From positions 1,834,621-1,898,620 of the forward strand of contig OZ241845.1 in the NCBI GenBank assembly GCA_965202725.1: a stretch of DNA of 64,000 bases. The letters are read 5' to 3'. A model generated the notes under the pieces. It saw nothing but the letters and a program-made list of their open reading frames with translations. It did not search any database and had not been told where the DNA came from. Both the position numbers and the translations under genes were made by a program. Numbering within the stretch: position 1 is the first letter of the stretch; each line of letters starts with the position of its first letter. This stretch comes from Candidatus Poribacteria bacterium (GTDB taxonomy: Bacteria; Poribacteria; WGA-4E; WGA-3G). This document shows positions 30,164 through 48,480 of this stretch, piece by piece.

Positions 30164-30164
30164 A

Positions 30165-30440: not shown

Positions 30441-30465
30441 CAATTTACCTCCAGTTTGGTTTATA

Positions 30466-30494
30466 AGCATACCCTAAATTTGCACATAAGTCAA
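30466..30494 (-). promoter_or_regulatory. cas2-SWIM operon promoter (TTGACT-N17-TATGCT, minus strand)
   Basis: The minus strand reads aaaaTTGACT tatgtgcaaatttaggg TATGCT. About 20 nt further is GGAGGT, then the cas2 ATG. It shares about 40 nt with the array 1 leader promoter region. Confidence 0.55.
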
Positions 30495-31100: not shown

Positions 31101-32732
31101 GTGAACTATCGCGATATTTTAAAAGACATTCGCCAGGCTTTTCCGCAACCTGTAGCAGACCCTATCCATAATTCCTATTTCGTGCATTCTATCATGCGCG
31201 CCTTGGACCAGGTCGATGAACTCAAAACACATCTGCCAATGCTCGGCAGCGTCATCCCTGCTGATTTTGCAGCAGCGCGCCAGACAACCCTACCTGAAAC
31301 GATGTCCTCCGTTAAGGATGTCACAACCGACCTCGTGAGCTACCTCCGAGGTATGACGATCTTCGGACACCCGCGCACGCAACAGAACGTTGTTGCCCCA
31401 CCAACAATTCCAAGCCTGATCGGGGTGCTCCTCGCGTCTCTCTACAATCCAAACCTCGCCTGGGATGAATACAGTCGACTAGTGGCATTGGCTGAGGTTG
31501 AGGTCATCGGGATGACCTCAAAAATGGTGGGATACGATCCAGAGGCATCAGGCGGCGTATTTACTTTCGGCGGCACGGGAACAACCTTCTACGGGGTAAA
31601 ACTTGGCTTGGAAAAAGCTGACCCAGGCACGGTCGAAAACGGCACCTCTGAAGACGTAGTTGTGTTTGTGTCAGATACAGGCCACTATTGCGCCACGAAC
31701 ATCGTCGGTTGGCTCGGCATCGGAACAAAGAATCTCATCACGATCCCAACGACATTTGAAAACGAAATGGATCTCGAGGTACTGGCACAAGAAACCCGCA
31801 AGGCACTGGAAAACGGAAAAAAGATCGCCGCTATTATTGCTACATTAGGCACCACGGACGCCTTTGGATTGGACGACTTAGCGCGCATCGTGGCGTTACG
31901 GGATAAACTTGTCGAGGACTTCAAACTGGACTATCAACCACACGTTCACGCAGACGCGGTTATCGGATGGGCATGGTCGGTCTTTAACGCTTACGATATT
32001 GAGGAGAACCCCCTAGCGTTTCGCCCGCGCACCCTCCGGGCGTTAGCAGGCACACGCCGGCGGATACGGCATTTAGCCCTCGCCGATTCAATCGGCATTG
32101 ACTTTCACAAAACCGGGTTTGCACCCTACATCTCGAGTCTTCTCCTCGTCAAAAACCGAACGGATCTAGATTTGGTGAAACGGCACCCCGAACAGATGCC
32201 CTATCTTTATCACTTCGGAGATTACCGGCCCGGTATGTACACACTTGAGACTTCAAGGGCAGGAACGGGGGTTCTCGCTGCCCTTGCGAACCTCCGACTC
32301 TTTGGCGAGCAGGGATTGCAAACGATTCTTGGACATATCGTTGAAATGGCCCAGCTCCTGCGCGAACACCTTGGCGGACACGCAGCCACAACCGTGGTCA
32401 ACCGAGAGAACTTCGGAACCGTCACCCTGTTCCGCGCCTATCCAGACGGCGTGGATACTTTCCCAATTCAAAATCAGGAATTTAAAGACCCTGCATATCG
32501 CGACAGCTTGCGCAAACACAACGCGTATAACCAAAAGATTTTTGAATATGTCCAAGCGGAAGCCATGGAGGGCAGGGGGGTGGTTATCTCCACAACGGAC
32601 TGTTACCGATACACTGCTTACGGTGAACCGATTGTCGCGCTAAAGTCATATATCCTCTCCCCGTTCGTCGATGAAGTGGACGTGGAGACTGTGGTCACCA
32701 AGGTGCTGGAAGCGCGGGAGAAGGTTGATTAA
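31101..32732 (+). CDS. PLP-dependent group II amino-acid decarboxylase (tyrosine/glutamate/diaminobutyrate decarboxylase family)
   Basis: 543 aa. The 'DSIGIDFHKTGFAPY' block matches the S-x-HK PLP-lysine motif of group II decarboxylases. Substrate is unknown. Confidence 0.7.
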   Translation: MNYRDILKDIRQAFPQPVADPIHNSYFVHSIMRALDQVDELKTHLPMLGSVIPADFAAARQTTLPETMSSVKDVTTDLVSYLRGMTIFGHPRTQQNVVAPPTIPSLIGVLLASLYNPNLAWDEYSRLVALAEVEVIGMTSKMVGYDPEASGGVFTFGGTGTTFYGVKLGLEKADPGTVENGTSEDVVVFVSDTGHYCATNIVGWLGIGTKNLITIPTTFENEMDLEVLAQETRKALENGKKIAAIIATLGTTDAFGLDDLARIVALRDKLVEDFKLDYQPHVHADAVIGWAWSVFNAYDIEENPLAFRPRTLRALAGTRRRIRHLALADSIGIDFHKTGFAPYISSLLLVKNRTDLDLVKRHPEQMPYLYHFGDYRPGMYTLETSRAGTGVLAALANLRLFGEQGLQTILGHIVEMAQLLREHLGGHAATTVVNRENFGTVTLFRAYPDGVDTFPIQNQEFKDPAYRDSLRKHNAYNQKIFEYVQAEAMEGRGVVISTTDCYRYTAYGEPIVALKSYILSPFVDEVDVETVVTKVLEAREKVD

Positions 32733-32776: not shown

Positions 32777-32986
32777 ATGCCTGAATTACCTGAATTAATG
32801 AGCTCACCACCATTTTTACTAATTGCAGCCGTATTCGCCATATCTATTATCCTCGGGATCCTCAAGCACGCATGGCGTTTCTTGATCTGGATTGCTGGTA
32901 TTGTTGCTGTTCTCCTCTGGCTGGGTGTTACGAATGTACCCCAGATGAGAGACTGGTTTGAGAGACTTCTGAAAATAGTGGAGTGA
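32777..32986 (+). CDS. Possible small two-helix membrane protein (69 aa)
   Basis: Two hydrophobic segments. AGGAAA about 7 nt upstream of the ATG. It overlaps the 3' end of cas6 on the opposite strand, so it may be spurious. Confidence 0.2.
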   Translation: MPELPELMSSPPFLLIAAVFAISIILGILKHAWRFLIWIAGIVAVLLWLGVTNVPQMRDWFERLLKIVE

Positions 32987-33935
32987 TACGGTACTGCCCA
33001 TGTCCAAACGCTGTGTGGTGCCCGATGTGTAGATACTCGCCGAGATAGATAAAGGGTAGGAACGGTTCTAACGCACCGGTAAAGCGAACCTTCCCGATAA
33101 ACCCACCCATCGGAACGGATTTCTCAGCTCGATAGGAGTAGCGATCTGCCCGTATCCAATAAAAATTGGATACGTCCGTTACGGCCTTCGCGGTGTCAAT
33201 TAGGGCCCGGGCATCTACCGCTAAGTCTTCACCACAATGGAAATAGCTCAGGAATCGGATACGCCGGAGTAGGTTGCGGATGAGGTGTTCAAAGGTCAGC
33301 TTGCTTGTCCACTTTCCTTCCACTTTGATGCTGGTGGGTGTGAGAAACTCCAACGCAATCTCATCAATTCCGTTCGGCACGCTACGCATGACGTCGTCCC
33401 GCCCAAGAATCTGACCGTCGTCTGTGAGTAGTTCGGTTGCTGCTGTGTAAATTGTTCGGATGTCTTGGCTGCCCCGTGCGGGAAGGGTTTCTACCTTATC
33501 AAGACGGCACTGTCCGCGTTTCCCACGGATGCCGACCCGCCGCCTACCTATCTCGCGGAAGGTGAAGACCAGCCATGGTAATAGGGTGATTGTCTCGCCG
33601 ATGAGGGTCAGCGTGCAGGTGAAGGTATCGCCGGGGGCATAGTCCAGTTGCTGAGTGTGTGGCGGTTCAAGAATAAACGGGTGCGGCGCGAAGGGCTGTG
33701 CGCGTAGCATTGGACTGTCATCGGGGACAGGCGTTTCAAAGCATTTAGAGTAGACGCACCGGGCTGGGTGCTGGCACTGTGTGTGGCATCGCGTTTCGCC
33801 GCTGATGCATGTTATGTCGCGCAGCAGGTATCCCAACCGGCTGCGGAAGATGTTGCCTTTGTATGCCGGCATCTTTAGCGGTTCTCGGACGGTGTATGTG
33901 AATCGGTAGCGTGCGAATCTGAAGTTTTGGAGCAT
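32928..33935 (-). CDS. cas6: CRISPR repeat endoribonuclease Cas6
   Basis: C-terminal glycine-rich loop 'IGHHTAFGHGQYRI' matches the Cas6 G-x-x-T-x-x-G-x-G signature. The N-terminus 'MLQNFRFARYRFTY' is typical of Cas6. At 335 aa it is longer than most Cas6 proteins. Confidence 0.75.
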   Translation of the reverse strand: MLQNFRFARYRFTYTVREPLKMPAYKGNIFRSRLGYLLRDITCISGETRCHTQCQHPARCVYSKCFETPVPDDSPMLRAQPFAPHPFILEPPHTQQLDYAPGDTFTCTLTLIGETITLLPWLVFTFREIGRRRVGIRGKRGQCRLDKVETLPARGSQDIRTIYTAATELLTDDGQILGRDDVMRSVPNGIDEIALEFLTPTSIKVEGKWTSKLTFEHLIRNLLRRIRFLSYFHCGEDLAVDARALIDTAKAVTDVSNFYWIRADRYSYRAEKSVPMGGFIGKVRFTGALEPFLPFIYLGEYLHIGHHTAFGHGQYRITPLFSEVSQTSLSSGVHS

Positions 33936-33993: not shown

Positions 33994-35148
33994 CTATGGG
34001 CTTTTGTACACAACGTTACGATTGCCGTAGTGCCTCAGTGTCAAACCGCCAGGAGCCCTTTCACAACTGACCCGAATACCCCGGGCAATACGGAAGGTGT
34101 AGATATTATCATGATTTGCAAGTTGTTGAAACTTGAGGCCAGAAACTCGGGCATTCAGTTGGGTTATATTCCCATTACTCTCTTCCAGCGCTACAGCTAT
34201 CTTCGCCAAGGTTTCCTGAAGGTCTTCCCATTGATCGTTGTTTAACTTCTGACAGTCGTTGGTGAAACTTTGCTGATACACTAACCGAGGGAATTTCAAC
34301 AGTTCTCCAGATAACAGATCTGATTTCGATCGCTGCCAGAGCAACTCCCCCCACGTCGATAATCCCGCATAAGTCTGGCCATTTTCTTCTACGAATTCCA
34401 GAAGCGTTTCTGAAATACCACTAAGCTCGTCAATCGGATATAACTTTCCTGCAGCCATCAATGCAAATTCCGTCAGATTTTCTTCAATAACAGCGGTATT
34501 AATCTGTATTGGCAGGCTCGGGATCTTGATTAACTCAGCATTTTCTGACTCAAAGATATATATCACTTCATCGGCGTAAAATGCCCCGAAGGTATTCATG
34601 TAACCTTGCAGACTCTTGAAGCCCCCGACAAGGTTGAAAATCACGCGATAGCCGCCCCCCTGTAGCGGCGGCACATTGTCCTGTCGCCGCGGCACAGTGT
34701 CCTCAAGCCACTCAATCAATTTCTTTGTCCCCGTGGTGAAGGACTCCGGATCTTGTGTTGAAAGCCGATCAGGAATGAAAACGTTCACGTTAAAGCCTTG
34801 TCCCTCGAGGAAATCCTTAATCAATTCACCAGTTTGTCGTCCTTGTGCGGTATCGGTGCAGATGAGATGGTGTTCGTCATTGCTATCCGTGGGCAGTTGG
34901 CCGCCATAGATGCCGTAAATGCCGTTCAATTCAGCACTGATCCGACGATTAGCCTGGGGATTGTTATCCATAAGCCGTTCGAGTGCTCGGGCCGCAAGTG
35001 TATTAATCACCTCTTTCGCATTGGGTGTTAATTCGTCTTGCGTGAGATTTGCCGAATCTCGCAGCGTTCCGAACCAAGTTCCCTCGTCTTCCCTATCAAT
35101 AAGATTTGTCAGGATACTGGTTCCAACAGTTGATAAAATAAAACGCAT
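33994..35148 (-). CDS. CARF-RelE fusion effector (Cami1-like cyclic-oligoadenylate-activated mRNA interferase, predicted)
   Basis: N-terminal CARF signature 'MRFILSTVGTSILTN'. The C-terminal roughly 90 aa, 'IYTFRIARGIRVSCERAPGGLTLRHYGNRNVVYK', aligns by eye with the RelE/ParE toxin core (YRIxYxxD...LxVLxxGHRxxxY). Confidence 0.65.
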   Translation of the reverse strand: MRFILSTVGTSILTNLIDREDEGTWFGTLRDSANLTQDELTPNAKEVINTLAARALERLMDNNPQANRRISAELNGIYGIYGGQLPTDSNDEHHLICTDTAQGRQTGELIKDFLEGQGFNVNVFIPDRLSTQDPESFTTGTKKLIEWLEDTVPRRQDNVPPLQGGGYRVIFNLVGGFKSLQGYMNTFGAFYADEVIYIFESENAELIKIPSLPIQINTAVIEENLTEFALMAAGKLYPIDELSGISETLLEFVEENGQTYAGLSTWGELLWQRSKSDLLSGELLKFPRLVYQQSFTNDCQKLNNDQWEDLQETLAKIAVALEESNGNITQLNARVSGLKFQQLANHDNIYTFRIARGIRVSCERAPGGLTLRHYGNRNVVYKSP

Positions 35149-35180
35149 TATATACCTCTGTTATCAATATTATAAGGTTA

Positions 35181-35285
35181 TCCGAACCGGCTGCGGAAGA
35201 TGTTGCCCTTGTATGCCGGCATCTTTAGCGGTTCTCGGACGGTGTATGTGAATCGGTAGCGTGCGAATCTAACGTTTTGGAGCAT
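35181..35285 (-). pseudogene. Duplicated cas6 5' fragment (35 codons then stop)
   Basis: Encodes 'MLQNVRFARYRFTYTVREPLKMPAYKGNIFRSRFG*'. About 100 nt are roughly 95% identical to 33833-33935. It starts 9 nt after the stop of the upstream CARF gene. Confidence 0.6.
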
Positions 35286-35293
35286 AGTGTTGT

Positions 35294-36391
35294 TCACGCC
35301 CAACCGAAGGCAGCGCGTATGTATCGATGAAATGTTTGCCGGAGGTCATACCACGTATTTTTCCCCCAGATTTCTAAAGACTGGCTTGAACGCCCTGTTT
35401 CTTCTCTCAATTCGGCTTGGATTAGCTGCTGCGCCTCTTGCGAAGCCCCACACAACACAATCGCACGTGCCTCAACACCGCCGAGTTGCCGCATCCGTAA
35501 AATAGCCTCCATCCCTTTTTCCTTCACCCGGTCATGTTTATAAGCAAGGGTACACGAAACGACAACGACTTGGTAACCCAGGACTGCAACTACGTCAAGT
35601 TCAAAAGGCTTCACACTTGCGTCTGATAGATCGGATCGTCGGACATATACCTTGTGGAAAAGTCTATAGTTGTTCCGATCCGGGCACTGTCGGGACACAT
35701 CTCCCAAGGCATCCTGAAAGGCAGCATACGCCCCGTATTCAAGAAGTTCCGGTGTAGAACACCTACCCCTATTGACTACTGCACGGCCTTTCGCCAATTG
35801 CTCTCGGCTGAGCGTGTTGGGGGCAGGACAACTTCTCGTTTGATTGTTCCCTAATTCATCCCGATATTCATAAAAAAATGGGCCGAGTTCAAAACCGTTG
35901 AGATCAGCAATTCGCAGCAAAGAAGGATCTACTCCCTTGCGAGTATCTGAGACTAAGACATTCCCATTCCGGTCTATGAGGGTCGCCCCCGCGTCGGCAC
36001 GTGGATCCAGATAAGAGGTCTCTACATCCATACCTTGTGATGGAAGGGAAACCTTAAGATTTTCTGCCGCAGCGACGGTTTCAACGCACATCACCTTCGT
36101 GCCACCAGTATAATGTACGTGAATGCAAGTCGTATTGTCTGGTAAATTGTGCACGAGGCTCCGGGTTATGTCGTTGCGTACAGTAGCCGGATTTCCTGAC
36201 ACTGTTTCGACCGTATCAATAACAGGGACATCGCCACTATATTTCAGCAGTCGATCCCGTTCGGGTCTTGTTTCTTTCGTATGCACGAGTCGGACATAGA
36301 TAGGGGCTGGCAGTTTATCTTTCAAATGATGGAGTGCCACCCACACAGGTAGGGGATTGGTGCCAACTGTTAGCATGAGCAGCGTTCCCAT
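35294..36391 (-). CDS. CARF-domain effector with uncharacterised C-terminal domain (possibly restriction-endonuclease-like / Can2-like)
   Basis: N-terminal CARF signature 'MLTVGTNPLPVWVAL'. The C-terminal roughly 170 aa contain 'FELDVVAVLGYQVVVVSCTLAYK', a candidate PD-(D/E)xK-like strand pair. The assignment is weak. Confidence 0.5.
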   Translation of the reverse strand: MGTLLMLTVGTNPLPVWVALHHLKDKLPAPIYVRLVHTKETRPERDRLLKYSGDVPVIDTVETVSGNPATVRNDITRSLVHNLPDNTTCIHVHYTGGTKVMCVETVAAAENLKVSLPSQGMDVETSYLDPRADAGATLIDRNGNVLVSDTRKGVDPSLLRIADLNGFELGPFFYEYRDELGNNQTRSCPAPNTLSREQLAKGRAVVNRGRCSTPELLEYGAYAAFQDALGDVSRQCPDRNNYRLFHKVYVRRSDLSDASVKPFELDVVAVLGYQVVVVSCTLAYKHDRVKEKGMEAILRMRQLGGVEARAIVLCGASQEAQQLIQAELREETGRSSQSLEIWGKNTWYDLRQTFHRYIRAAFGWA

Positions 36392-36469
36392 GGGGACAGT
36401 TTCCTCCGTTTTCCTACAAATTTTGCTGAACTCCGAAAAGGTCGTGCTTGTGCTGCGGTATTTCAGGGG

Positions 36470-36526
36470 CTCTTAGACGGTGTATGTAAATCGGTAGCGT
36501 GCGAATCTGAAGTTTTGAAGCATCAT
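36470..36526 (-). pseudogene. Second duplicated cas6 5' fragment (17 codons then stop)
   Basis: Encodes 'MMLQNFRFARYRFTYTV*'. It overlaps the csx1 stop in an ATGA context and matches the cas6 5' end for about 55 nt. Confidence 0.5.
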
Positions 36527-37974
36527 GGAAGTTGTGCGATAAATTTATGTTGCTCATTGAAAGAAACAGCATCAATACAAGCAAGCTCTTGCGCCATCTT
36601 GAAGCGTTTTTCAACAGTTGACTTAAAAGCGTTGAATTCTTTGCTACTGATTATGCGCATACCATGTGCGTAAATACTTTGATTCCTCGTTCCCACTTGG
36701 TTTTGAAACCTTCCCCAGTCCAAGTCTTGAACAATTTCATCTTCCAGGGCGTGTAATAAGAGATATCCGTCAATCAACCCAATGGGGGCAGGAAGAACAG
36801 ACCTATCTGTGCGTTGGAAAACTTCTTTCAATTTAGCCTTATACCGACTGAAAATTTCAGCCTTATCAATACCAGAGTAATCCGGGTTACGAGTGTCAAT
36901 CTTGTACCCTGCAAGACGGTGTTGTTCTATCCACTCAAGAAGCCGATAGAGAATCAGACAGGCAGTGTCGTGTTTTCCTTGTGCTTCTCGACGAAGTGCA
37001 TTGTGATAGAGCATAAACGCAAAGTGAAATCCATTAGGCGCATTAAGTGCTTCATGTTCGGTTTTGAGAAACGTCAATAAACGGTTCAATGCTTCCGTTT
37101 GTTTGTCAAGACGGGACCTTAAATCTTGGAGACGACTTAGCCCTTCTAACATCGAAAATTGACAAAGAAGTTCCACCAATCGAACTAAATAAGTTCTGGA
37201 CTTGCCAATATCAAGATTATCCCAAGCCTCATAGGCTGTGCAGAGGTATTCATAAGCTTCGTAAATTTTGACTTTATTGGTATCACCAACTTTTGATTTG
37301 AGTTGATCAAAAATACGCTGCGCTCCAGCGTAATCGTGCTCGTTGTATAGGTTTCTTGCCTTCTCAACCTCTAAATCACCAAACACGGTGTAAGGGTTAT
37401 CTAAGAGACTGAGATATTCAGAGCCCGGTTCAGGTTTCTGTAGTACAAATGAGGTGTTGTCCACATAATAAATATCGGCACCAAGTGCAGCACCTGCCAT
37501 CGCTGCGCCACCAACCATTGACTTTTTGCCTCCTGTGATATCTACGGCAATATTCGTTGGTTTGCCCCACTCAGTGTAAAGTTCCATGATTGTCTTGTAT
37601 ACTTCCACAGTGCTGCTTCCATCAATTCTGCGCACGGCAAGCTGGTCGAGCTGTAACTTCGTTTCGTCCTGAATTCTTTGCAGAAATCCGGCTGTTTCTT
37701 CTGTGTGAAGTAAAGCAACCCATTCAGGTCTTATCGCGAGGATAGAAAGAATTAGCGGTTCAGGGGAGAAACCAACAGTCAAAATGAGAACATCATACTC
37801 TTTATTGGGGCAATTTGCGGGTTTTTTGAGAAAGACCTCCTTGACAAGTGGGAAAATCTGTTCGTCATAGAAAGTGCCTGCGGTTCTTCTGGCCTCGTGA
37901 GAAGTACGGTCCATCTCCTGCCATTCTGAGAACAGTGCATTAAGTTTGGTTTCGAGGGTTTTGTTTTTCGACAT
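36523..37974 (-). CDS. csx1: Csx1-family CARF-HEPN ribonuclease
   Basis: CARF signature 'VLILTVGFSPEPLILSI', and C-terminal HEPN R-x4-6-H motif 'RNQSIYAHG' about 50 aa from the end. A length of 483 aa is typical of Csx1. Confidence 0.8.
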   Translation of the reverse strand: MSKNKTLETKLNALFSEWQEMDRTSHEARRTAGTFYDEQIFPLVKEVFLKKPANCPNKEYDVLILTVGFSPEPLILSILAIRPEWVALLHTEETAGFLQRIQDETKLQLDQLAVRRIDGSSTVEVYKTIMELYTEWGKPTNIAVDITGGKKSMVGGAAMAGAALGADIYYVDNTSFVLQKPEPGSEYLSLLDNPYTVFGDLEVEKARNLYNEHDYAGAQRIFDQLKSKVGDTNKVKIYEAYEYLCTAYEAWDNLDIGKSRTYLVRLVELLCQFSMLEGLSRLQDLRSRLDKQTEALNRLLTFLKTEHEALNAPNGFHFAFMLYHNALRREAQGKHDTACLILYRLLEWIEQHRLAGYKIDTRNPDYSGIDKAEIFSRYKAKLKEVFQRTDRSVLPAPIGLIDGYLLLHALEDEIVQDLDWGRFQNQVGTRNQSIYAHGMRIISSKEFNAFKSTVEKRFKMAQELACIDAVSFNEQHKFIAQLP

Positions 37975-38169
37975 ATTTATACTTCCTCTTAGATTTCTAT
38001 ATTCTTTTTTTATGGTGTCGCCTCATTTTCCAATTTCTCTGAGGTGAGTATTGTTGTAAACTACAAACTCTACAAGTTCGTCACGCGAGTATCTTCCTTT
38101 TGCCTTGGCACCTGCATTTATATAATAATTATCATGATTTATCAGGCGCCTCCAAGCTCGAGTTACTAC

Positions 38170-38802
38170 CTAAGGAATAACTTGGGTCACATGACCGTTT
38201 GCATTGACTCCTTGAACTCTCAATTTAACCTGTGCTTCAGCATTCCAAGGGTAATAAGAACGTTCAAAAACAAGTTCCTCATTATTTTTAGTTTGTAACT
38301 GCACCGTTACCTTAAACCCGTCGTTCTTCAGAATAGCCGCTTTGACCCTGTCCCCGACCTTGATTTTCGGTTTCTCTGGTTCTTTTGGCGGTTGTGGTGT
38401 TTGCGTGTGAGGCATTTCCAGTGTTTGCTGTGGTGCTTGTGGTACTAGTGGATGGTGTTGTTCCTTGACAGCCCGTTCTGGCTCAACGCAATAGTATCGC
38501 ATCAACCGTAGACTCCAACCGAGAATCGTCAGGATTTCACCCGTATCACTGATACTATGAAGGTGCGTTTCACAGGCTTCTTGGATGTTTTGGTAATATT
38601 CCTGCGTCTGGCTGCTCCGAATGAGGGCATTTTGCGTATTTGCCAATCGATGAACGAGGTCCATGAGCCTATCCTTAGCGTTGTCTTCCCCTTTGTAGCG
38701 TCTCATGAAAGCAACTACTTTACCAAATTCATTAGGGTCCGTGTCCCAGTCAACCAAATCAAATGCGATGTCGTGGGCGATAGACCAATGTTTTTTATCC
38801 AT
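38170..38802 (-). CDS. Uncharacterised type III-linked protein: helical N-domain, Pro-rich linker, small beta-barrel-like C-domain
   Basis: 210 aa. The N-terminal roughly 125 aa are helical. The linker is 'PQAPQQTLEMPHTQTPQPPKEPEKPK'. The C-terminus 'IKVGDRVKAAILKNDGFKVTVQL...' looks KOW/OB/SH3-like. It sits between the last Cas7 gene and csx1. Confidence 0.4.
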   Translation of the reverse strand: MDKKHWSIAHDIAFDLVDWDTDPNEFGKVVAFMRRYKGEDNAKDRLMDLVHRLANTQNALIRSSQTQEYYQNIQEACETHLHSISDTGEILTILGWSLRLMRYYCVEPERAVKEQHHPLVPQAPQQTLEMPHTQTPQPPKEPEKPKIKVGDRVKAAILKNDGFKVTVQLQTKNNEELVFERSYYPWNAEAQVKLRVQGVNANGHVTQVIP

Positions 38803-38814
38803 GGGATACCTCCA

Positions 38815-39732
38815 TCAATAAAGTCCAGATGGGCAGTTTCTATCATTCGGGTAGCGGAGAATTTCAGCAAGCTTTTTCAATAGATCTATTTTGATGAGAG
38901 ATCCCATTGCTGCTTCTATGCATTTGCTTTTCCATTTCCTCAATTGTGCACCTGTCTTTGCCGATTTCGGCTGAACGTTCCAGTCTAAATACTTTTGCTG
39001 GTTTTGTTTTTCAACCTGAACCTCATCAATATCAATATCGATTGAACCGAAGCATACAGGCTTCGCACCGCCAATTTTGAGTTTAAATGGATAATCAGAA
39101 TTGTGTCCCAACGCCGTTAAAAACAAACCCCACTCTGCTTGGGTTAGGTTGTCAACCTGCACGACAAACTGAAATTTTGAATCTTCCTCCCATGCTTCAA
39201 CGGGGGTTTTACCCGTAGCCACCTCCCCGTGCTTGTAAAATTTTCGTCCTTGCTGTCGACGCGGCTTATAAAGCTCAGGGACATATTTCGTTACAATTTG
39301 TCCTTTAATTAGTGGAGCATCCTGTATTGCAATATTGGATTGAAAACCCATAGCCCCAAACATACGGCAGGAAACACACAGTTTACCTCCTGGACGACAT
39401 TCCGATGAACGGGTATTACAGATGCAGCTTTCCGAAATTGCCTCAACAACGCTCCGAATAGCACCTTTAAGTGAGCTACCGGGGATAAGGGCATTTCTAT
39501 CCGTTCGGACTGCTGTTTTGATAAGTTCTTCATTCTGATCGATATCAATAACGCCGCTGCCAATATAGATGGGGGATAATGCCTTTATTCTTCCAATGAC
39601 CTTACCTGTTGTATATGTATTTGTCTGGCGGTAGCTATCATGTCCGATTGGAGATTCTCTATTAACCCCCTGTGGAAGCGGAACAAAGTCGAAAGGTTTT
39701 AGTGCAGCCTGTTTGGGTTGAGATTGACCCAT
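38815..39732 (-). CDS. RAMP (Cas7 group, Csm5/Cmr6-like) subunit
   Basis: 'ALIPGSSLKGAIRSVVEAIS' G-rich RAMP loop, a C4 zinc-finger-like 'CICN...C...CVSC', and C-terminal 'GGAKPVCFGSIDI'. Confidence 0.7.
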   Translation of the reverse strand: MGQSQPKQAALKPFDFVPLPQGVNRESPIGHDSYRQTNTYTTGKVIGRIKALSPIYIGSGVIDIDQNEELIKTAVRTDRNALIPGSSLKGAIRSVVEAISESCICNTRSSECRPGGKLCVSCRMFGAMGFQSNIAIQDAPLIKGQIVTKYVPELYKPRRQQGRKFYKHGEVATGKTPVEAWEEDSKFQFVVQVDNLTQAEWGLFLTALGHNSDYPFKLKIGGAKPVCFGSIDIDIDEVQVEKQNQQKYLDWNVQPKSAKTGAQLRKWKSKCIEAAMGSLIKIDLLKKLAEILRYPNDRNCPSGLY

Positions 39733-39744
39733 GATTCTTGCTCC

Positions 39745-40230
39745 TTACTTTCTTACAAAAGCCATGTATCGCGTAAAACGAATAGTATGAGAAATGCTTT
39801 CTTTATACTGAATTATATTGATTTTTGGAGATTGGCACCATTTCATTGGATATTTAAGTTTTCGCGGGATTCGCGTATCTCGCCATGGTTTAGTTTCACC
39901 ACCACCGAGTAAGGATACTGCCTGTGGTTCGCTTGTTGCCCATTCACCCAATGTGGTAAATTCTGCTGGCAAATCTCCCTCAGACAACCAGAGTAGTGCG
40001 TAACCGATTGACTGCTTTCGCCAGCGGAGTTCCCCGTTTTTGTCAAATATTCTGCCCCATGTATACTCTTCTATTTCTTTTGCGTCTGGTGTTCCTTTTT
40101 TCCAATCGGTGATTTTATCCGGACTTTGGAGTAAGTAATAGGAAGGATCACCGAATTCTAGATCTTTAATTCGTTGTGTAAATTCCAAAATATTAGACGC
40201 TTGTGCGGTTGCAACAATCGCTTTTCCCAC
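39745..40230 (-). CDS. Small uncharacterised protein (161 aa) at the position occupied by Csx19 in III-D loci
   Basis: No motifs recognised. Trp-rich. Embedded between two Cas7 genes with 1-nt and 13-nt gaps. Confidence 0.35.
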   Translation of the reverse strand: MGKAIVATAQASNILEFTQRIKDLEFGDPSYYLLQSPDKITDWKKGTPDAKEIEEYTWGRIFDKNGELRWRKQSIGYALLWLSEGDLPAEFTTLGEWATSEPQAVSLLGGGETKPWRDTRIPRKLKYPMKWCQSPKINIIQYKESISHTIRFTRYMAFVRK

Positions 40231-41151
40231 TTACTCACCCCCTTCGACCATTTCGCGCCATGAACAGACACAGCCTTGCCATAGTGCGATGATTTCGTCC
40301 GGTGATTTAAGGTTTAGTGTAGCACCTAGTCCGTAATCATCTTGTTGTGCTTGTACACTTACATCGACGGAATCAGGATTAGGAAATCCATAATTGCATG
40401 CGTTATCCACAAGTTGTCCTGCGCCCACAACGATCTTGTCTTTAAATGATGTAGTTTGTCCTACAAATTTCAATTGCTTATTTTCAACAATCGCTGTTGG
40501 GTATCGAATTTCAACGCTGCTGACTTTCATGTTTACCTGTCCTAAGCCGCGTGATTTTGCGTAACCGAGACCTACCCGTTGTTCGTCAAAGTCACGGACG
40601 GCAAGTGCAATAAGTCCAAGCTGAGCTGTTGTAAAGTTCTTCAGAGTGATTTTCGTTCTAAACTCGCCTGAAATGATAACTTCAAAGTTGAACGGACCAA
40701 AGGCAACAGAACCAAAGAGCCTGTTGATCGCAACACCATTACGTTCTTCTCGACGAATTCCTTTCGGATCGATAGGATATGCATCGGCAATACGCGCATG
40801 CGCTGAAATTTTTGTACTGCCAAAGATTTGGCAAACCGTGCAGGTATTTTGGTAAAGGGCGGCACTGTCTTCTGCTTTTAAATTTCTACATAGCGAGTCA
40901 TCTTTCAACGGATCACATGTGGTGACATTCCCTCCGAGTGTCCGCACAATCCGCTCACAATGTGCACGAATCGCCCCTTTCAGTGAGGAGCCCGGAAGAT
41001 AAACGCTTCTATCCCCAGCATGATAGGTTTCAACGAACTCCATATCTGGTTTGGTCGGGTCTGCCCCTTGGTCGCTCGCTTTGATGAGCAGCGGTCCGAC
41101 AGGAGAGATCACTAATTCAATGATGGCTTGGTTGACAATCCGTTTGTGCAT
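40231..41151 (-). CDS. RAMP Cas7 (Csm3/Cmr4-like) subunit
   Basis: 'VYLPGSSLKGAIRAH', a zinc-finger-like 'C...C...CTVCQIFGS', and a G-rich loop 'GYAKSRGLGQV'. Confidence 0.75.
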   Translation of the reverse strand: MHKRIVNQAIIELVISPVGPLLIKASDQGADPTKPDMEFVETYHAGDRSVYLPGSSLKGAIRAHCERIVRTLGGNVTTCDPLKDDSLCRNLKAEDSAALYQNTCTVCQIFGSTKISAHARIADAYPIDPKGIRREERNGVAINRLFGSVAFGPFNFEVIISGEFRTKITLKNFTTAQLGLIALAVRDFDEQRVGLGYAKSRGLGQVNMKVSSVEIRYPTAIVENKQLKFVGQTTSFKDKIVVGAGQLVDNACNYGFPNPDSVDVSVQAQQDDYGLGATLNLKSPDEIIALWQGCVCSWREMVEGGE

Positions 41152-41987
41152 TAACTCCCCTCCGATTGCTGTTTAACTTTGTCGTGGAACGCATCTACCC
41201 ACGATTCCCAATTAGCATTGACTCCCATACAGTCTTTGGTCAGATAGTCTATGATATTAGAACCATCAATATAGGCTGTGGTATTAAGTGATAATTCGAT
41301 TTGTCCCAACCCGCGGCTACTTCCGCCGCCAATGGTCAATTCACCCTTCTCAAAAGCAGAAAGACCGAGGTAAAGCATACCGAGCTGCCAATCTGCAGCG
41401 TTGTCAACAATTGCATGAAAATTGAATACAACTTCTGCCGGAACGACTTCAAAATCGTAGAGTTTGCCATCTGAGGCTGTTTCTGTGTCCCGATCAATTG
41501 CAACACCGTCGCGTTGCTGATATTGATCGAACCAGAGATCCTGTTGCACATGCAAATCACGAATTTGCAACTTAGAAGCATACCACAACGATCCGAAGAG
41601 TTGACATACCCAACAAGTATACCCAAGAATTTTTTTGCTAAATTCTTGGTCTGTCCATTTATGCCGTTCCCGAGGATTTTTAAGGCCTCCCTCTCGTGAC
41701 TTTCGCAAACTTTGCATATCACTGCGGTTGATACACTGTCCGCCCTCATCAATAGGGTTACAAACCATGTGCTTGTCGTCTTTAAAGCTTCTCATTATAC
41801 TTTCAATGTAAGACCGGAGAACACCTTTGAAACTTGAGCCAGGTATGTAAGGGCGGTTTGCTGCGTCCCGCACGACAGGAAGATCGGAACTAATAGGTGA
41901 TGTGGAACGCCCCGCACCGATGCGAATTGCAGTTAACGTTTCAACCTCGCCCTCCAAAATGAGCCGGGATTGGAATTTATCAAACAT
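41151..41987 (-). CDS. csm3: RAMP Cas7 (Csm3-like backbone subunit)
   Basis: 'PYIPGSSFKGVLRSYIE', 'CWVCQLFGS', and 'GGGSSRGLGQIEL'. A conserved Asp ('SSDLPV') lies in the loop where the Csm3/Cmr4 catalytic Asp is found. Confidence 0.8.
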   Translation of the reverse strand: MFDKFQSRLILEGEVETLTAIRIGAGRSTSPISSDLPVVRDAANRPYIPGSSFKGVLRSYIESIMRSFKDDKHMVCNPIDEGGQCINRSDMQSLRKSREGGLKNPRERHKWTDQEFSKKILGYTCWVCQLFGSLWYASKLQIRDLHVQQDLWFDQYQQRDGVAIDRDTETASDGKLYDFEVVPAEVVFNFHAIVDNAADWQLGMLYLGLSAFEKGELTIGGGSSRGLGQIELSLNTTAYIDGSNIIDYLTKDCMGVNANWESWVDAFHDKVKQQSEGS

Positions 41988-42469
41988 TAGTTGTTACTCC
42001 CTTTGTATGCCAGAAAAGCTTGATACCGAGCAAGATTGCCTAAGTAAAGCTGCATCAAACGAACGTGAACGCTTTGAATATCTTCTGTCGTTGGATCTTC
42101 ACAGATAGATTGGACAAGATATTCAGCATTTTGAGCTAAGGCCTCAATCTCTTGAACTAATGCCACAGCGAAACTTTCTTTTTTACTTGCCTTGTCACCT
42201 TTACTTCCCTTGTACTTCCACATCGGATTTGAACCCTTCCGACCGAGTTGATAACGGATGTAATTCTTGGTTATTTCGATACCACTTCCAGATTCTGTGG
42301 CAACATTTAGCACATTGCGAAGTGGCGATTTCTGTGGAACATTGCCAAGATTATACCTATCCGCGAATTTCCGCATCTCCGGTATAAGTGTTTCCATCTG
42401 TTTACCTATTTTCTGCTCAACCTTTAAATTTTTCTGTTTTTCAGTGATAGCTCGTTCTGTTTGACTCAT
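41987..42469 (-). CDS. Type III small subunit (Cas11; Csm2/Cmr5-like)
   Basis: 160-aa helical protein, basic, located directly after the Cas7-Cas5 gene with overlapping stop and start. Assigned by size, position and composition only. Confidence 0.5.
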   Translation of the reverse strand: MSQTERAITEKQKNLKVEQKIGKQMETLIPEMRKFADRYNLGNVPQKSPLRNVLNVATESGSGIEITKNYIRYQLGRKGSNPMWKYKGSKGDKASKKESFAVALVQEIEALAQNAEYLVQSICEDPTTEDIQSVHVRLMQLYLGNLARYQAFLAYKGSNN

Positions 42470-44328
42470 CGTGTTTCCTCCTCATTTTGCAGCCAAGCGC
42501 CTTCTGATTTAACCTGCCCTCGTGACCGAAGATGGAACGCGTCGCAAATCGTTATCTGCCCGAAACCTTCTTCACGCCGATCGCCGATGCCGTTATTTTC
42601 GAGTGTCTGCAAGGCAGAAATCCACGCCTTAATATCAGGTGTATGAAAAACAAAGACGCTTCCCATTTTCGTGACAAGGTCCGTCTCTTTCGGTACCCCC
42701 CATGCCGCATTCCACCCACCAACATAATCGTAACTCGCAAAACTTCGGATGAAGGTCACTTCAGTCCCACAACCTGTCATCTGCTTAAGCATCGGAGCGG
42801 TGATAACCATGCTCCGCTGCCACCCATCTTCTGCTGTGAGAATCGCGTCGGATTGCAAGTTCACACTAAAATAAATGCCATCAAACGCACCTATTCCAAC
42901 GTTTGATAGCTGGAAATAGTTATTCCAAGTTTCTTGTAAAGCACAGTTAAATTTATCGATGCGTTGTTTCAATGTATCCTGCACTTCATATTTTTCCACT
43001 TTCAAACTAACTTTCCCAAGTCCGCGTGAACTTCCGCCTCCCAATCGTTTAACCTTTTTCTGTAACGTGTCGGCTACTTTATTCGTTAGGGCTGATGGAA
43101 CTTTCATTGTACCTTGCAAGTATACCTCTTTTCCATCAGTAGACAACGGGTCAACTGCTGTCAAATGGTAGAGTAACTCATCTTCAGCAACTTTACGCTG
43201 CCGGTTGATGGCAACGCGTGTGAGCAATCGCGTGTTAAGAGTATTTTTCGTATAAACACCGTTGGATTCTGTATAGAATCCGCTTTGTGATTCAACACGT
43301 TCCAAACAATGTGGGCAGTTTGGTTGATACATCTGATCTGCCTTTTCAGAAACGATTTTTTCAAAAAGTGTGTCGAAAATTCCGTGTTTATCTTTATCTT
43401 TTCCTCTCAGGAACCCAGAGAAATCCTTGCATCCCACAGCGGTTGCAGGTAACACATTAGCCCCCGGGGTGCAGTTCCGAAAGATACAAGCCTCGTCATT
43501 AAGGAACAGTTGGGTGAATTCATCATCAGGTTTACGATTTTCTAAATTAGATAATAACACATTTGCTAAAGCCCCACGTATTAACCCACCGCGAATATAA
43601 TTGACTGCCTCAACTGCCTGTCCTGCTGGTTTACGTCCACCTGTAATGATGGGTGATTCCAACGTAACATGAATTAATAACTCGGTGGATTCCTCTGAAT
43701 TGATTTCTATTGACTGAAGCTCTTGTGTAGTGGGTGTAATTTCTTTATGTTCAATTTTTAACCACCCGATTCCACGGGTTTTGCCTGAGCCGATGGCGTG
43801 AATGTATTTAAGTCCAGCGGATAGTAGTTTAATGTGATTATCTGTAATACTATTACTGATTGTTACATCCCCGGAAAATTCAAATCCAGCGTTAGAGAGG
43901 CTTGTCTCAGTGAAATAGAGACGTTGATCTTCTCCGACTCGCCTGCTGCGATTGATGGTGACTCCGCTTCGGATTTCCGTTGATTCTATTCCCAAATCGC
44001 TTTCCGGTGTGAGATCGCTAATAAATATCCTTGATTCCAATGTCGGTGAACCGAAAATTTGGCAAATAATGCAGTGATTGTCAACACACATATTCTCGGC
44101 ACGCGGACTATTACAAACGGAGTGATTTTCCATCCTGGGTGCAAGGACCTCACACGCGTGCCTCCAGATACCTTTAAGCGTTGAGGCAGGGATATATAGT
44201 TTGCCATCACGGGTCTTGACCGTTGACTTGTCTGCACCTATTTCACTACCACCGCTGTCACCGATGCACAGTGCTGTATCAACTGTTGTTGTAATCCGCC
44301 ACTGTTTTTCAGTCGTTGAATTCGTCAC
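42466..44328 (-). CDS. Large two-RAMP protein, probable Cas7-Cas5 (Csx10/Csm4-like) fusion
   Basis: 620 aa. The first RAMP has 'LYIPASTLKGIWRH', a C-rich thumb and 'CQIFGS'. The second RAMP starts around residue 215 ('YIRGGLIRGALANV'). C-terminal G-rich loop 'GGGSSRGLGKVSL'. Confidence 0.6.
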   Translation of the reverse strand: MTNSTTEKQWRITTTVDTALCIGDSGGSEIGADKSTVKTRDGKLYIPASTLKGIWRHACEVLAPRMENHSVCNSPRAENMCVDNHCIICQIFGSPTLESRIFISDLTPESDLGIESTEIRSGVTINRSRRVGEDQRLYFTETSLSNAGFEFSGDVTISNSITDNHIKLLSAGLKYIHAIGSGKTRGIGWLKIEHKEITPTTQELQSIEINSEESTELLIHVTLESPIITGGRKPAGQAVEAVNYIRGGLIRGALANVLLSNLENRKPDDEFTQLFLNDEACIFRNCTPGANVLPATAVGCKDFSGFLRGKDKDKHGIFDTLFEKIVSEKADQMYQPNCPHCLERVESQSGFYTESNGVYTKNTLNTRLLTRVAINRQRKVAEDELLYHLTAVDPLSTDGKEVYLQGTMKVPSALTNKVADTLQKKVKRLGGGSSRGLGKVSLKVEKYEVQDTLKQRIDKFNCALQETWNNYFQLSNVGIGAFDGIYFSVNLQSDAILTAEDGWQRSMVITAPMLKQMTGCGTEVTFIRSFASYDYVGGWNAAWGVPKETDLVTKMGSVFVFHTPDIKAWISALQTLENNGIGDRREEGFGQITICDAFHLRSRGQVKSEGAWLQNEEETR

Positions 44329-46888
44329 TTATATCTTCCTCGTTTTGGTCTTCAGGTTCAGGGATAAAATCATAAGCCTCAATTATATCGAAAATTAATG
44401 TTTCATACTCGGCTTCACCGGTTCGGTGTTCCACCGGTATCGTGTACCAAGGTCCCTGACCGTTCACGCTATGGGAAACACTTTGCCAATTATGTTCAAT
44501 TTGCTCCTGAAGCAGTTCGCCTTTTCCGTCTCCAAGACGACTTCGGAAGTAGAGGTAATCGAGCGTTGATGTTGATCTACCAAGTTCAATCGACTGCCGA
44601 AGTTGGTAGAGTTGTGAACGTGGGAACTCATCTTTTTTGAACGCTTGAATGGTGTGAATGAACCTCGAAAGTTCGTGCAATGTGAAAGGACGCATGGTTA
44701 ACACATTCTGTTCATCTGTTTTGTAAAATTTTTTGCGGAAATCGCCAAGTTCACTTGAAATCATTGAAAGCGACTTTAGCACGAGGAAATCAACCGTTCC
44801 ACCGAGATAAGCGACATCTGGCTTCTTTAACGTCTTTGCTCTGGCTTTTGCTGTTCTGAGTAAGCTACCGGCGAGATGCTCTAAAAATCCAACCGGTGTA
44901 TGTCCTTCAGCAATGACGAAACCCAATGAGAGACTAAATACTGGTTGCATATTCTGCTCATCTATCCATTCGCTTCGCGCGTAACGCTGAGATTTACGTA
45001 GTTTATCTTTTTCTGTAAATTTTGAGTAACTGTTAAATTCCTGATCGAAGTTTTTCCCAATAGCATGAACGACATCAAACGCCGCGCTACCCGGCACGAT
45101 GAGCAACAAATCATCTCCACCAATACTGATGATTTCAAATGGCAGGACTCCGTCATCGTTAGGTTTAAGATAGACAGCAAGTGCATCAAACGCTGCTTTT
45201 TGAAGTGCAATAAAAACACGTTCAGAAAACTGTCTATACTGCGCGGGAGTTTCAATGTTTTCCAAATATCCCCCCATGTTGTTACCATCAGCATAGATGA
45301 ACGTGATAAAACCTTTAGGATTACTTGTGTCAGCGATGTCTTCAAGGTCTTGAGGACCTCCCACATCTTCAAAAGGCTGGTCTTTGGTAAAATATTGATT
45401 CGCCTTAGCAGTTGCCTTCAAATAACTTTTGAATAGCGAACTCCAATCATTAAGATACCATCCTCCGTTTTCCTTTTGGGTCGCAGGTTGCCAACCGGAA
45501 AGTTGATCCAAATAGTGACTAATACTGCCCTGTTCCTTTGATTTATCATTTTCCTTTTTTGTGATACGCCCAACAACATATTTCCGTATGCATGCTTCAC
45601 AAATGTTTCGTGGATTGTTGATGATTGCGGGTCGCCGTTCGCAACTTTCACATCGGAGTTGATACGGACCGATTTCTACGTGTGTTGGTAGGTCGCGCCG
45701 TGATGTCCTGTTTGGTGCTGGATTCCCTTCTCGGCGACGCATCTGTTCTTGTGCCAACTTTGTTGTTAGCTCGCCGAAACATTTTCTATTGAAAAAATCG
45801 GCCTCAGTATCGCCATAATAGTTTGTCATCAGTTCTTTATTTTTTCCGTGCGCACACGTTTTACGGAAATCTTCCACCCAAAAATGTGTAGGATTGAGTC
45901 CATACTGTAACTCTAGTAGATCGAATGTATCGCCTACTGCTACACTGTTTGCGACAAGTGTTTCTTTGGTGTAAATCCGTTCAATTTCGTCTGCGATGTG
46001 GTAAACAATAGAAGCCGGTGTGAATGCCAGCGTATTGCCACCTGCAGCGTAGATGATGCATTCTGGCGAGTTGATCGTATGTCCTATCCGATCGCTAAAT
46101 TCTTTTCGGATGCGATCCGATTGCTTTTTATCATAGGGTTTCCGGCCGAATAGGGCAGGGACATATTCAAGATTAATGCGGTCAAGTAAGGCACTTGCGC
46201 CGCGAATCTCTGGAAGCTTGGAAGATTCAAGGAAGTAACCTTTGATCTTCGTCGCTCCACCTAACACAAGTCCGATCTGTTGTTTCTGATTCGGATCGTT
46301 CGGGTTGAGAGAATGCGTGCCGAATTGTCCTTTCTCGCCAATTGTTTCTCGATCAGAAGCGGCCGTTTTTGCCAGATATACGATGCGTTCAAGGTTGTTT
46401 CCATCTGCTTTAGGTTCAATCGGTGTGTTTCCAATCCACAATGCCTTGTAAACCTCGCCCATACCATCGCCTTGCCAAGTTGCGGTCATAGCAGAAAGAC
46501 GGAGTTTATCCAATGTTTCATCATTAGGGCGGGTATCTTCATCGTAACCAAGACAGTATGCTATTGCTGATGCGGTTAGGGAATGATCAGCAATGGTTGC
46601 TCCTGGGAGTGAAGGACAAGGCAGCCATCGAAACAGATGTTTGCCGTTTTTCCCTTGCCAGAGTTCTTGGATCTGTGGAAGCAGTAAGTCAAGAATACAA
46701 GAGACACGATCCGCTATGGGGAGATCCGCGCAGTCACCGATGTGTTCGACAGTCTGTTGAATTGTAGCATCCCAATCCTCCTCTGTGATACCAAACTCAT
46801 CTTCAAGAATCGGATCTTTCCAACTCGGATCTTTCCAACAGTGATGCCGGTCTTCAATCTGTTTACCTATTTTCCAGTCTCGTGTCAT
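44309..46888 (-). CDS. cas10: Cas10 (Csm1/Cmr2-type large subunit) with GGDD cyclase palm; no recognisable HD motif
   Basis: 859 aa. 'EIISIGGDDLLLIVPGS' is the GGDD palm. Treble-clef zinc finger 'CESCERRPAIINNPRNICEACIRK'. Degenerate first palm 'IIYAAGGNTLAFTP'. The N-terminal 200 aa lack an HD dyad. Confidence 0.85.
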   Translation of the reverse strand: MTRDWKIGKQIEDRHHCWKDPSWKDPILEDEFGITEEDWDATIQQTVEHIGDCADLPIADRVSCILDLLLPQIQELWQGKNGKHLFRWLPCPSLPGATIADHSLTASAIAYCLGYDEDTRPNDETLDKLRLSAMTATWQGDGMGEVYKALWIGNTPIEPKADGNNLERIVYLAKTAASDRETIGEKGQFGTHSLNPNDPNQKQQIGLVLGGATKIKGYFLESSKLPEIRGASALLDRINLEYVPALFGRKPYDKKQSDRIRKEFSDRIGHTINSPECIIYAAGGNTLAFTPASIVYHIADEIERIYTKETLVANSVAVGDTFDLLELQYGLNPTHFWVEDFRKTCAHGKNKELMTNYYGDTEADFFNRKCFGELTTKLAQEQMRRREGNPAPNRTSRRDLPTHVEIGPYQLRCESCERRPAIINNPRNICEACIRKYVVGRITKKENDKSKEQGSISHYLDQLSGWQPATQKENGGWYLNDWSSLFKSYLKATAKANQYFTKDQPFEDVGGPQDLEDIADTSNPKGFITFIYADGNNMGGYLENIETPAQYRQFSERVFIALQKAAFDALAVYLKPNDDGVLPFEIISIGGDDLLLIVPGSAAFDVVHAIGKNFDQEFNSYSKFTEKDKLRKSQRYARSEWIDEQNMQPVFSLSLGFVIAEGHTPVGFLEHLAGSLLRTAKARAKTLKKPDVAYLGGTVDFLVLKSLSMISSELGDFRKKFYKTDEQNVLTMRPFTLHELSRFIHTIQAFKKDEFPRSQLYQLRQSIELGRSTSTLDYLYFRSRLGDGKGELLQEQIEHNWQSVSHSVNGQGPWYTIPVEHRTGEAEYETLIFDIIEAYDFIPEPEDQNEEDISDEFND

Positions 46889-48329: not shown

Positions 48330-48480
48330 GGTGCTTGATACATAGATTAACGGTTTCCTATGCTACAAGTGCTTGATACACAGGCTAACAGTGTCCTATG
48401 CTACAAGGGCTTAATACACAGGCTAACAGCCTATGCTACAAGGGCCTGATACACACGGCTAACGGTTTCCTATGCTACAA
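48330..48480. repeat. Variant copies of the dispersed hairpin repeat
   Basis: Four units 'gcttgatacacaggctaacagNNNcctatgctacaa'. In one copy the hairpin arms are swapped (aggctaacagcct versus the usual agcctaacaggct), which keeps it palindromic. Confidence 0.65.

Follow-up and report, generated by a model that had tools for sequence, protein, structure and literature searches.

A well-described system of CRISPR-Cas subtype III-D is the III-Dv system of Synechocystis sp. PCC 6803, solved by cryo-electron microscopy (PMC11026444). Its Cas10 has no working HD site and keeps the GGDD motif, it was shown to make cyclic oligoadenylate (cOA) that activates Csx1, and Csx19 is a core subunit of the solved complex. 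Subtype III-D in general is described as acting mainly via cOA signalling, both there and in the survey of Hoikkala, Graham and White 2024 (PMC11229360), according to which an HD domain is recognisable in only 3% of III-D Cas10 proteins. Cyclase activity is predicted for about 97% of Cas10 proteins (PMC12669027). Here, a CRISPR-Cas locus is described which lies on the minus strand of a 64,000-nucleotide (nt) stretch of Candidatus Poribacteria DNA (contig OZ241845.1, positions 1,834,621 to 1,898,620; hereafter the window, to which all coordinates refer). The locus is very likely a complete and intact subtype III-D system of a Poribacteria-type chromosome, in which three effectors would respond to one cyclic tetraadenylate (cA4) signal. 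Beyond the correct annotation its significance is small: it offers a clean and complete III-D example from an under-studied phylum of sponge symbionts, with a rare trio of known cA4-type effectors. Modest points of interest remain in the prediction for Csx21, the probable HD-remnant domain of Cas10 and the slot in which effectors are exchanged.

Gene content and subtype of the locus

Positions 33994-46888 hold eleven co-oriented open reading frames (ORFs) on the minus strand, separated by short gaps or small overlaps. All are considered real, and all were assigned by strong family matches in profile searches against Pfam, NCBIfam and PADLOC. Every ORF of the III-D locus is intact. What is shown directly is which genes and families are present, their motifs and predicted folds, and how the locus compares with its relatives.

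The Cas10 large subunit (44309-46888, 859 amino acids, aa) was matched by PF22335 (E 3.5e-14), by TIGR02577 with 81.5 bits over a cut-off of 79.4, and by the PADLOC Cas10 profile (E 6e-64). It is followed by a Cas7-Csx10 (Cas7-Cas5) fusion of 620 aa (42466-44328), in which residues 1 to about 205 form the Cas7/RAMP domain and residues 219-600 the Csx10 part. TIGR02674 (Csx10) matched the latter with 318 bits at a cut-off of 177.3, and the PADLOC matches were Cas5_IIId (E 2e-95) and, on residues 7-206, Csm3 (E 2e-41). Next comes the Cas11 small subunit of the III-D Csm2 type (41987-42469, 160 aa; PADLOC Csm2 E 1e-28, CAS-III-D effector_SS profile E 2.5e-25). A Cas7 of the Csx7 type (41151-41987, 278 aa; TIGR02581 211.5 bits, cut-off 108) precedes a second stand-alone, Csx7-like Cas7 (40231-41151, 306 aa), which matched RAMP PF03787 (E 2e-24), PADLOC Csm3 (E 5e-42) and, under the cut-off, TIGR02581 (94.5 bits). 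Csx19 (39745-40230, 161 aa) was recognised by three PADLOC Csx19 profiles (E 1e-10 to 7e-7) and by TIGR03984 (E 2e-6, 27.6 bits, under the cut-off of 35). The fourth Cas7 (38815-39732, 305 aa) was matched in two stretches by TIGR03986 (E 2e-28), again in two stretches by PADLOC Csm3/Cas7_IIId, and by the III-E gRAMP profile (E 9e-23). It is related to the TIGR03986 family and to the C-terminal Cas7 of Cas7-11, and the two-piece match skips the long insertion of those profiles. Csx21 (38170-38802, 210 aa; PADLOC E 2e-38) and three CARF proteins, treated below, complete the eleven. Outside this block, Cas6, the endoribonuclease for CRISPR RNA (crRNA), is encoded at 32928-33935 on the same strand (335 aa; PF10040 E 2.5e-19, PADLOC Cas6 E 1.5e-90).

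The assignment to subtype III-D rests on the Csx10 score, which exceeds the curated cut-off, and on the presence of Csx7, Csx19, a III-D-type Cas11, Csx21 and four Cas7 domains. A preliminary description, made from the sequence, had arrived at the same subtype from the order Cas10, Cas7-Cas5 fusion, Cas11, Cas7, Cas7, small protein, Cas7, and the profile matches bear out both the subtype and the order. Its statement that the proteins of 161 and 210 aa have no recognisable domains did not hold, since these are Csx19 and Csx21.

With the Synechocystis III-Dv system (PMC11026444) the locus shares the gene order of cas10, the Cas7-Cas5 fusion, the Cas7 domains, csx19 and the last Cas7, and also cas6, adaptation genes and an array nearby. 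In both, Cas10 is without a working HD site and retains GGDD, and accessory CARF proteins are encoded alongside (Csm6 and Csx1 in Synechocystis). The two differ in that Cas11 is a separate gene in the window and not fused to Cas7-Cas5, and the two middle Cas7 are separate genes, not a Cas7-2x fusion. Furthermore, the last Cas7 of the window is short, its matches skip the insertion domain, and a csx21 gene follows.

Related loci were found by an alignment-based Cas10 scan of genome contigs; a scan with a single Cas10 sequence gave none. In total, 80 loci (L001-L080) were compared, of which the closest 18 (L001-L018) comprise 17 from Poribacteria and one from a Latescibacterota metagenome-assembled genome (MAG; L012). 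In a protein search, the nearest Cas10 homologues were 65-72% identical, and the few with a named source belong to Candidatus Poribacteria. The best genome matches for Cas10 reached 54-68% identity, in Poribacteria MAGs and the Latescibacterota MAG. The III-D loci of the Poribacteria MAGs (such as OX638316.1, OX638351.1 and OZ242029.1; L003-L018) share this Cas10 over its full length, including the N-terminal domain, and the core operon from cas10 to csx21, whereas the genes between csx21 and cas6 vary by genome. In some related genomes the same flanking genes are found (Rieske protein, sigma-70 factor, DnaG; 71-85% identity). Given the close Poribacteria homologues and the conserved flanks, the III-D locus is most likely an inherited feature of the Poribacteria lineage.

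Csx21 is listed in the literature as "Type III-D associated", and no function was assigned (PMC6546367). Its AlphaFold model (predicted local distance difference test score, pLDDT, 77) places a five-helix bundle at residues 1-115 and a five-strand barrel at residues 152-209, joined by a Pro-rich linker (117-144) that is disordered. The predicted fold of the N-terminal domain is a helical bundle like Cmr5/Csm2 (Cas11), and the C-terminal barrel is predicted to be S1-like. A tblastn match to Csx21 lies about 1 kb downstream of the match to the last Cas7 in 64 of the 80 related loci, with the helical domain as the conserved part. Going by the model and by this position after the last cas7, which is fixed in those loci, unlike that of the shuffled neighbouring CARF genes, Csx21 probably adds to the complex another unit of the Cas11-like kind that also carries an RNA-binding part. 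Two results weigh against this. A comparison of Csx21 with the Cas11 family of the locus using hhalign gave a probability of 0.3% and was not significant, and in a Pfam search of the 23 members of the Csx21 family, two were hit by Cas_Cmr5 at E 0.15, all Cmr5 and S1 matches being confined to E 0.05-0.15 in one or two members. More specifically, Csx21 might be no accessory protein but a stoichiometric subunit: a second and divergent Cas11-like unit, located in the minor filament where the 3' end of the crRNA lies, with a tethered S1 barrel to hold on to the target transcript or to some other RNA. We put this forward tentatively and with somewhat more doubt than belief. If true, this III-D clade would have a small-subunit architecture unseen in solved type III complexes. 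The modelled Cas11-plus-S1 architecture is mildly new, as the only part which would go slightly beyond published annotation, and it offers a testable role for Csx21.

We infer the following scheme for how the complex is composed, what the signal is and which enzymatic activities are at work. Cas6 would cut the array transcript. Four distinct Cas7 domains, of which one is fused to Csx10, the homologue of Cas5, would form a backbone that holds the crRNA, along with Cas10, Csx19 and Cas11. To these, Csx21 would probably add a second Cas11-like unit bearing an S1-type RNA-binding barrel. Binding of a complementary transcript would switch on the Cas10 palm with its GGDD motif, which would then produce cOA, most likely cA4. 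This signal would activate the three CARF effectors encoded in tandem, and the expected outputs are a TtCsm6-like HEPN RNase, a clade-1 Can2-like PD-(D/E)xK nuclease acting on single-stranded DNA (ssDNA) and RNA, and a Cami1-like CARF-RelE mRNA interferase.

The N-terminal domain of Cas10

An intact GGDD palm and zinc finger had been ascribed to Cas10 in the preliminary description, and both were located: GGDD at residues 590-593, invariant across 26 aligned homologues, and CxxC pairs at residues 413-416 and 430-433. The accompanying statement that no HD dyad is visible proved correct at the level of motifs. The dipeptide HD does not occur in the 859 aa, the only His residues within residues 1-210 are 15, 16, 49, 84, 102 and 192, and no His of the N-terminal domain is invariant among the 26 homologues. 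A Pfam search with residues 1-204 and a PDB sequence-profile search with a profile of the domain both gave no match at E ≤ 10. The alignment to HD-containing Cas10 proteins, which had been proposed as a check, was performed with hhalign against a profile of three solved III-A Csm1 HD domains and yielded a probability of 0.1%, which is not significant. A short pairing in this alignment, LAKTAAS with IADNIAS, was discarded as not trustworthy.

Residues 1-204 are conserved from end to end in the Poribacteria clade, with the signature FRWLPC..L.GATVADH(A/S)LTASAIAYCL. Across the 26 homologues, D25, D30, D101 and D116 never vary, and near-invariance is seen for H49, H102 and H192. The AlphaFold (AF2) model of this region is a mainly helical domain with a pLDDT of 83.6. 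According to the model, the domain probably has a degenerate HD fold and not a lost one, i.e., it would probably descend from an HD nuclease domain whose HD dyad was lost. This is rated only as probable because a Foldseek search of the domain model against the PDB returned noise only and did not support an HD fold, and because the N-terminal half of SsoCsm Cas10 is itself based on a ColabFold model, built in a poorly resolved region of the map (PMC9945777).

Conservation of this kind might also be read as a sign that the domain still works as a metal-dependent nuclease or hydrolase, using a non-canonical site of D30, H49, D101-H102 and D116 and providing a fourth output, borne by Cas10 itself. 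The conservation over the full length and the invariant and near-invariant Asp and His residues would suit such an enzyme, as would the resemblance of the modelled fold to HD-superfamily enzymes. In the model, D101-H102 begins one long helix and H49 ends another, close to where ligands sit in canonical HD domains. However, there is no HD dyad, the residue preceding D30 varies between E, K, D and G, no HD profile matched at the threshold used, and the Csm1 comparison was not significant. In addition, the first approximately 100 residues are absent in cyanobacterial Cas10 proteins of the same clade, and that half is therefore dispensable in sister systems. A working nuclease site in this domain is considered very unlikely. 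On the preferred reading of a degenerate HD domain, direct cleavage of ssDNA by Cas10 is not expected, because the HD dyad has been lost.

The cyanobacterial III-D relatives of this Cas10 (35-40% identity) start at the helix which matches residues ~106-116 of the window protein. Since they begin about 100 residues later, the Poribacteria domain looks, from the sequence comparison, like the fuller remnant of a domain which was truncated further elsewhere. It is a possibility that the Poribacteria Cas10, with a near-complete but motif-less HD domain, represents an intermediate step toward the HD loss seen in cyanobacterial III-D Cas10.

The CARF effectors and the slot between csx21 and cas6

Downstream of csx21, three CARF proteins with three different output domains had been proposed, and all three score as CARF by profiles. 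For the last two, a CARF-RelE fusion and a CARF protein with a possibly PD-(D/E)xK-like domain had been named, and their order had been swapped: CARF-PD-(D/E)xK precedes CARF-RelE. The first effector (36523-37974, minus strand, 483 aa) is a predicted CARF1-HEPN RNase of the Csx1/Csm6 type (TIGR02710 171 bits, cut-off 83.9; PADLOC CARF1--CARF_HEPN E 3.5e-133). The second (35294-36391, minus strand, 365 aa) is a predicted Can2-type CARF4-PD-(D/E)xK nuclease (PADLOC CARF4--CARF_PDDEXK E 1.4e-39). The third (33994-35148, minus strand, 384 aa) is a predicted CARF7-RelE protein of the Cami1 type, matched by PF09651 Cas_APE2256 (E 6e-29, 101 bits, cut-off 24.8) and by PADLOC CARF7--CARF_RelE.

The HEPN effector has the R-x6-H motif which had been noticed before, at R430 and H437. 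This segment, R430-NQSIYA-H437, aligns with RNSALLVH of 5fsh, the closest solved chain (CSM6, E 1e-33), the cA4-activated Csm6 of T. thermophilus. Pfam matches were obtained to the Csm6 HEPN and Csm6_6H domains. The CARF1/Csm6 family has members activated by cyclic hexaadenylate (cA6) as well as by cA4. The three effectors could consequently be imagined to have no common signal, with a Csm6-like HEPN protein answering to cA6 and Can2 and CARF-RelE to cA4, which would result in graded or staged outputs. Besides fitting the Csm6-type Pfam domains, this would agree with the ability of type III complexes to make several cOA species in vitro (PMC11229360). The same survey classes Csx1, Can1-2 and Cami1 all as cA4-activated and finds cA6-type Csm6 never alongside cA4 effectors in 1113 loci. 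For these two reasons a single cA4 signal shared by all three CARF effectors is most likely. The nearest solved relative of the HEPN effector, 5fsh, likewise speaks against split signals, which we hold to be quite unlikely.

Both domains of the Can2-type protein match PDB entry 8q3y (chains 8q3y-8q44, E 6e-20), which is listed in the paper on Can2 of Thermoanaerobacter brockii (TbrCan2), where the active-site motif of clade 1 is given as E-ExD-SxTTS-K and the enzyme is assigned to a type III-D system in the role of an ancillary nuclease (PMC10783487). Besides the combination of CARF and PD-(D/E)xK, the two proteins share the 'FELD' ExD motif and, within SxTTS, the S and the leading T, and TbrCan2 K369 and E372 correspond to K292 and E295 of the window protein. 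In the latter, E264-x-D266, S279-x-T281, K292 and E295 are thus present. With 365 aa against 437-439 aa, the window protein falls about 70 residues short of TbrCan2, TT-S of SxTTS reads T-L-A in it, and TbrCan2 E364 is replaced by Asp. For its assignment as an active clade-1 nuclease it is unfavourable that the motif is S-C-T-L-A instead of S-x-T-T-S and that the alignment does not reach the first catalytic Glu, which is E304 in TbrCan2. An interpretation as a dead nuclease, due to SCT at the classical ExK site, was rejected, as clade-1 Can2 enzymes use E-ExD-SxTTS-K (PMC10783487).

In the third effector, the PADLOC CARF7--CARF_RelE profile covers residues 2-377 (E 2.5e-123). Its CARF part matches the APE2256-family chains 3qyf and 7pq2 (E 1e-5), both presumably Crn1-type ring nucleases, and the NCBIfam ring-nuclease model matched the CARF7 domain weakly, with 30.8 bits at a cut-off of 600. 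The C-terminal 110 residues (33997-34326, minus strand) were aligned with homologues to give 20 sequences, in which that of L004 (71% identity to the window protein) is the sole Poribacteria homologue. The motif pattern, an invariant Arg and a nearly invariant Tyr are kept. Several observations weaken the assignment to RelE. An independent RelE signal in this part stayed below significance (YafQ toxin at E 1.3 in a PDB profile search), and a YafQ_toxin match at E 0.06 was obtained in only 2 of the 20 members. The window protein and the L004 homologue carry Thr where the other 18 sequences, from cyanobacterial-type loci, have the His of 'IDHF', and both are also without the second His, of the 'YGxH' motif, which is found in 14 of the 20. 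Because L004 has it in common, the change from His to Thr is read from the alignment as a conserved trait of the lineage and not as fresh damage.

These deviations bear on whether the effector set is partly decaying or repurposed, in which case one or two CARF proteins would mainly serve as cOA sinks or ring nucleases, or be inactive, and there would not be three parallel toxic outputs. Arguments for decay or repurposing are the altered Can2-type motif, the two His lost from CARF-RelE and kept by most of the aligned cyanobacterial-type homologues, and the matches of CARF7 to the APE2256-family chains and, weakly, to the ring-nuclease model; besides, a separate ring nuclease was not identified among the scanned genes. 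On the other hand, none of the three CARF ORFs is truncated, the Can2-type protein retains ExD, S, T, K and E, R-x6-H of the HEPN protein is intact, and the His-to-Thr change is shared with L004, while the RelE-like Arg and Tyr are retained. We judge partial decay to be unlikely and prefer three functional effectors under one cA4 signal.

The effector families of the locus, Csx1, Can1-2 and Cami1, are those of the multi-effector loci described in the main text of the survey by Hoikkala et al. (PMC11229360). There, co-occurrence of cA4-activated effectors is relatively common, and 54 loci combine Csx1 and Cami1. Loci with three effectors are called rare, and three cases are named, all of them Csx1 + Can1-2 + Cam1; the trio Csx1 + Can2 + Cami1 of the window is not reported in that main text. 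The novelty implied by the preliminary description was accordingly not borne out, as subtype III-D, loss of the HD motif, dominance of signalling and several CARF outputs are already established for the subtype. Loss of the HD motif in Cas10 is the norm for III-D, and the three effectors are an uncommon mix of well-known parts.

In the checked Poribacteria relatives, one or two CARF genes, shuffled between genomes, usually occupy the slot from csx21 to cas6. The slot contains CARF2-HEPN and CARF7-RelE in L004, and CARF2-HEPN and Can2 in L006 and L010. A protein of about 400 aa is combined with CARF7-RelE and Can2 in L005, with CARF2-HEPN and Can2 in L008, with CARF1-HEPN in L007 and with CARF5 in L018. 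The Latescibacterota MAG L012 has CARF7-DUF2103. The exact trio of the window occurs in none of the 18 closest relatives (L001-L018) within the range fetched. Because the core genes, cas10 to csx21, stay the same while the contents of the slot shuffle, the trio of the window is, as judged from these gene orders, one draw from a modular effector-exchange site, which would fit the extensive module shuffling reported in the 2025 classification update (PMC12669027). The slot would then be a hot spot of effector exchange among close genomes and a natural experiment on effector combinations.

In six III-D loci of Poribacteria relatives, csx21 is immediately followed by the gene for the protein of about 400 aa (L005:18895-20112, L007:10022-11212, L008:9414-10670, L011:18845-20059, L017:19331-20551 and L018:18864-20114), the copies being 34-61% identical. 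In the four copies scanned (L005, L007, L008, L018) there was no PADLOC match at E ≤ 1e-5, and tblastn at E ≤ 0.01 found no homologue in the window. It is a candidate for an uncharacterised accessory protein or effector of type III systems. In the cyanobacterial III-D loci (L019-L080), a CARF-RelE gene often lies within the effector operon, between cas11 and csx7 (at about 14.0-15.7 kb in locus coordinates) and not after csx21; hence, the same effector is wired in at a different position in the cyanobacterial lineage.

Adaptation module, CRISPR array and dispersed repeats

The adaptation genes are encoded downstream of cas6, on the minus strand. A gene for a decarboxylase dependent on pyridoxal phosphate (31101-32732) lies on the opposite, plus strand between cas6 and cas2 and divides the interference from the adaptation module; in relatives such as L014, cas2 directly follows cas6. 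Cas2 (30165-30470) was matched by PF09827 (E 1.7e-24) and PADLOC Cas2 (E 2e-26). A 493-aa ORF (28694-30175, minus strand) shares 11 nt with the 3' end of cas2, and due to this overlap the two are probably co-translated. The ORF has a SWIM zinc-finger match (E 2e-5), its N-terminus matches the PADLOC candidate defence family PDC-S62 (E 1e-13), and no NCBIfam match was obtained. Cas1 (24764-25756) was identified with PF01867 (E 6e-94) and TIGR00287 (311 bits).

Adjoining cas1, a reverse transcriptase (RT) of the CRISPR-associated, group II intron-like type is encoded at 25973-27388 on the minus strand (RVT_1 E 4e-31; PADLOC RT E 3e-97). It also matches the RT part of the PADLOC profile for the Cas1_IIIb fusion. 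As a stand-alone RT, it was matched by profiles at residues ~23-195 and ~320-440, with about 110 unmatched residues between them. This middle part could be an insertion, or the protein could be a degraded or unusual CRISPR-associated RT. The presence of an RT beside cas1 suggests that spacers are possibly acquired from RNA.

A palindromic element of 23 nt, GTAGCATAGCCTGTTAGGCTGTG, has 39 copies in the window (0 expected by chance). Its main clusters, at 24415-24672, 27462-28665 and 30725-30984, are mostly in tandem and lie around cas1, the RT, the 493-aa ORF and cas2. Further sites are 11573-11641, 12874-13050, 19131-19250, 25954-25976 and 48417-48439. The element is a dispersed repeat similar to REP (repetitive extragenic palindromic) or MITE (miniature inverted-repeat transposable element) sequences which has colonised the adaptation module. 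An ORF of 174 aa (30521-31045) overlies one cluster and is probably no gene.

The CRISPR array (19491-23962) contains 59 near-identical repeats of 37 nt (59 matches, 0 expected by chance). On the minus strand the repeat reads CTTTGAATAGACTTTCCCGCTCGAAGGGAATTGAAAC and its 3' end is ATTGAAAC, which we take to be the usual 5' handle motif of type III systems. Repeats with point mutations gather at the low-coordinate end of the array. Because of this repeat end and the position of the mutated repeats, transcription of the array probably runs as that of the cas genes does, on the minus strand, from a leader near cas1. The repeat at 22607-22643 has a degenerate 3' end and is followed by a longer gap. 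Internal duplications of spacer-repeat units were also found: the 123-nt blocks at 19793-19915 and 20102-20224 are 99% identical, a further duplicate is formed by 20722-20798 and 20874-20948, and at 21699-21885 a unit of 75 nt is repeated 2.5 times with 100% identity.

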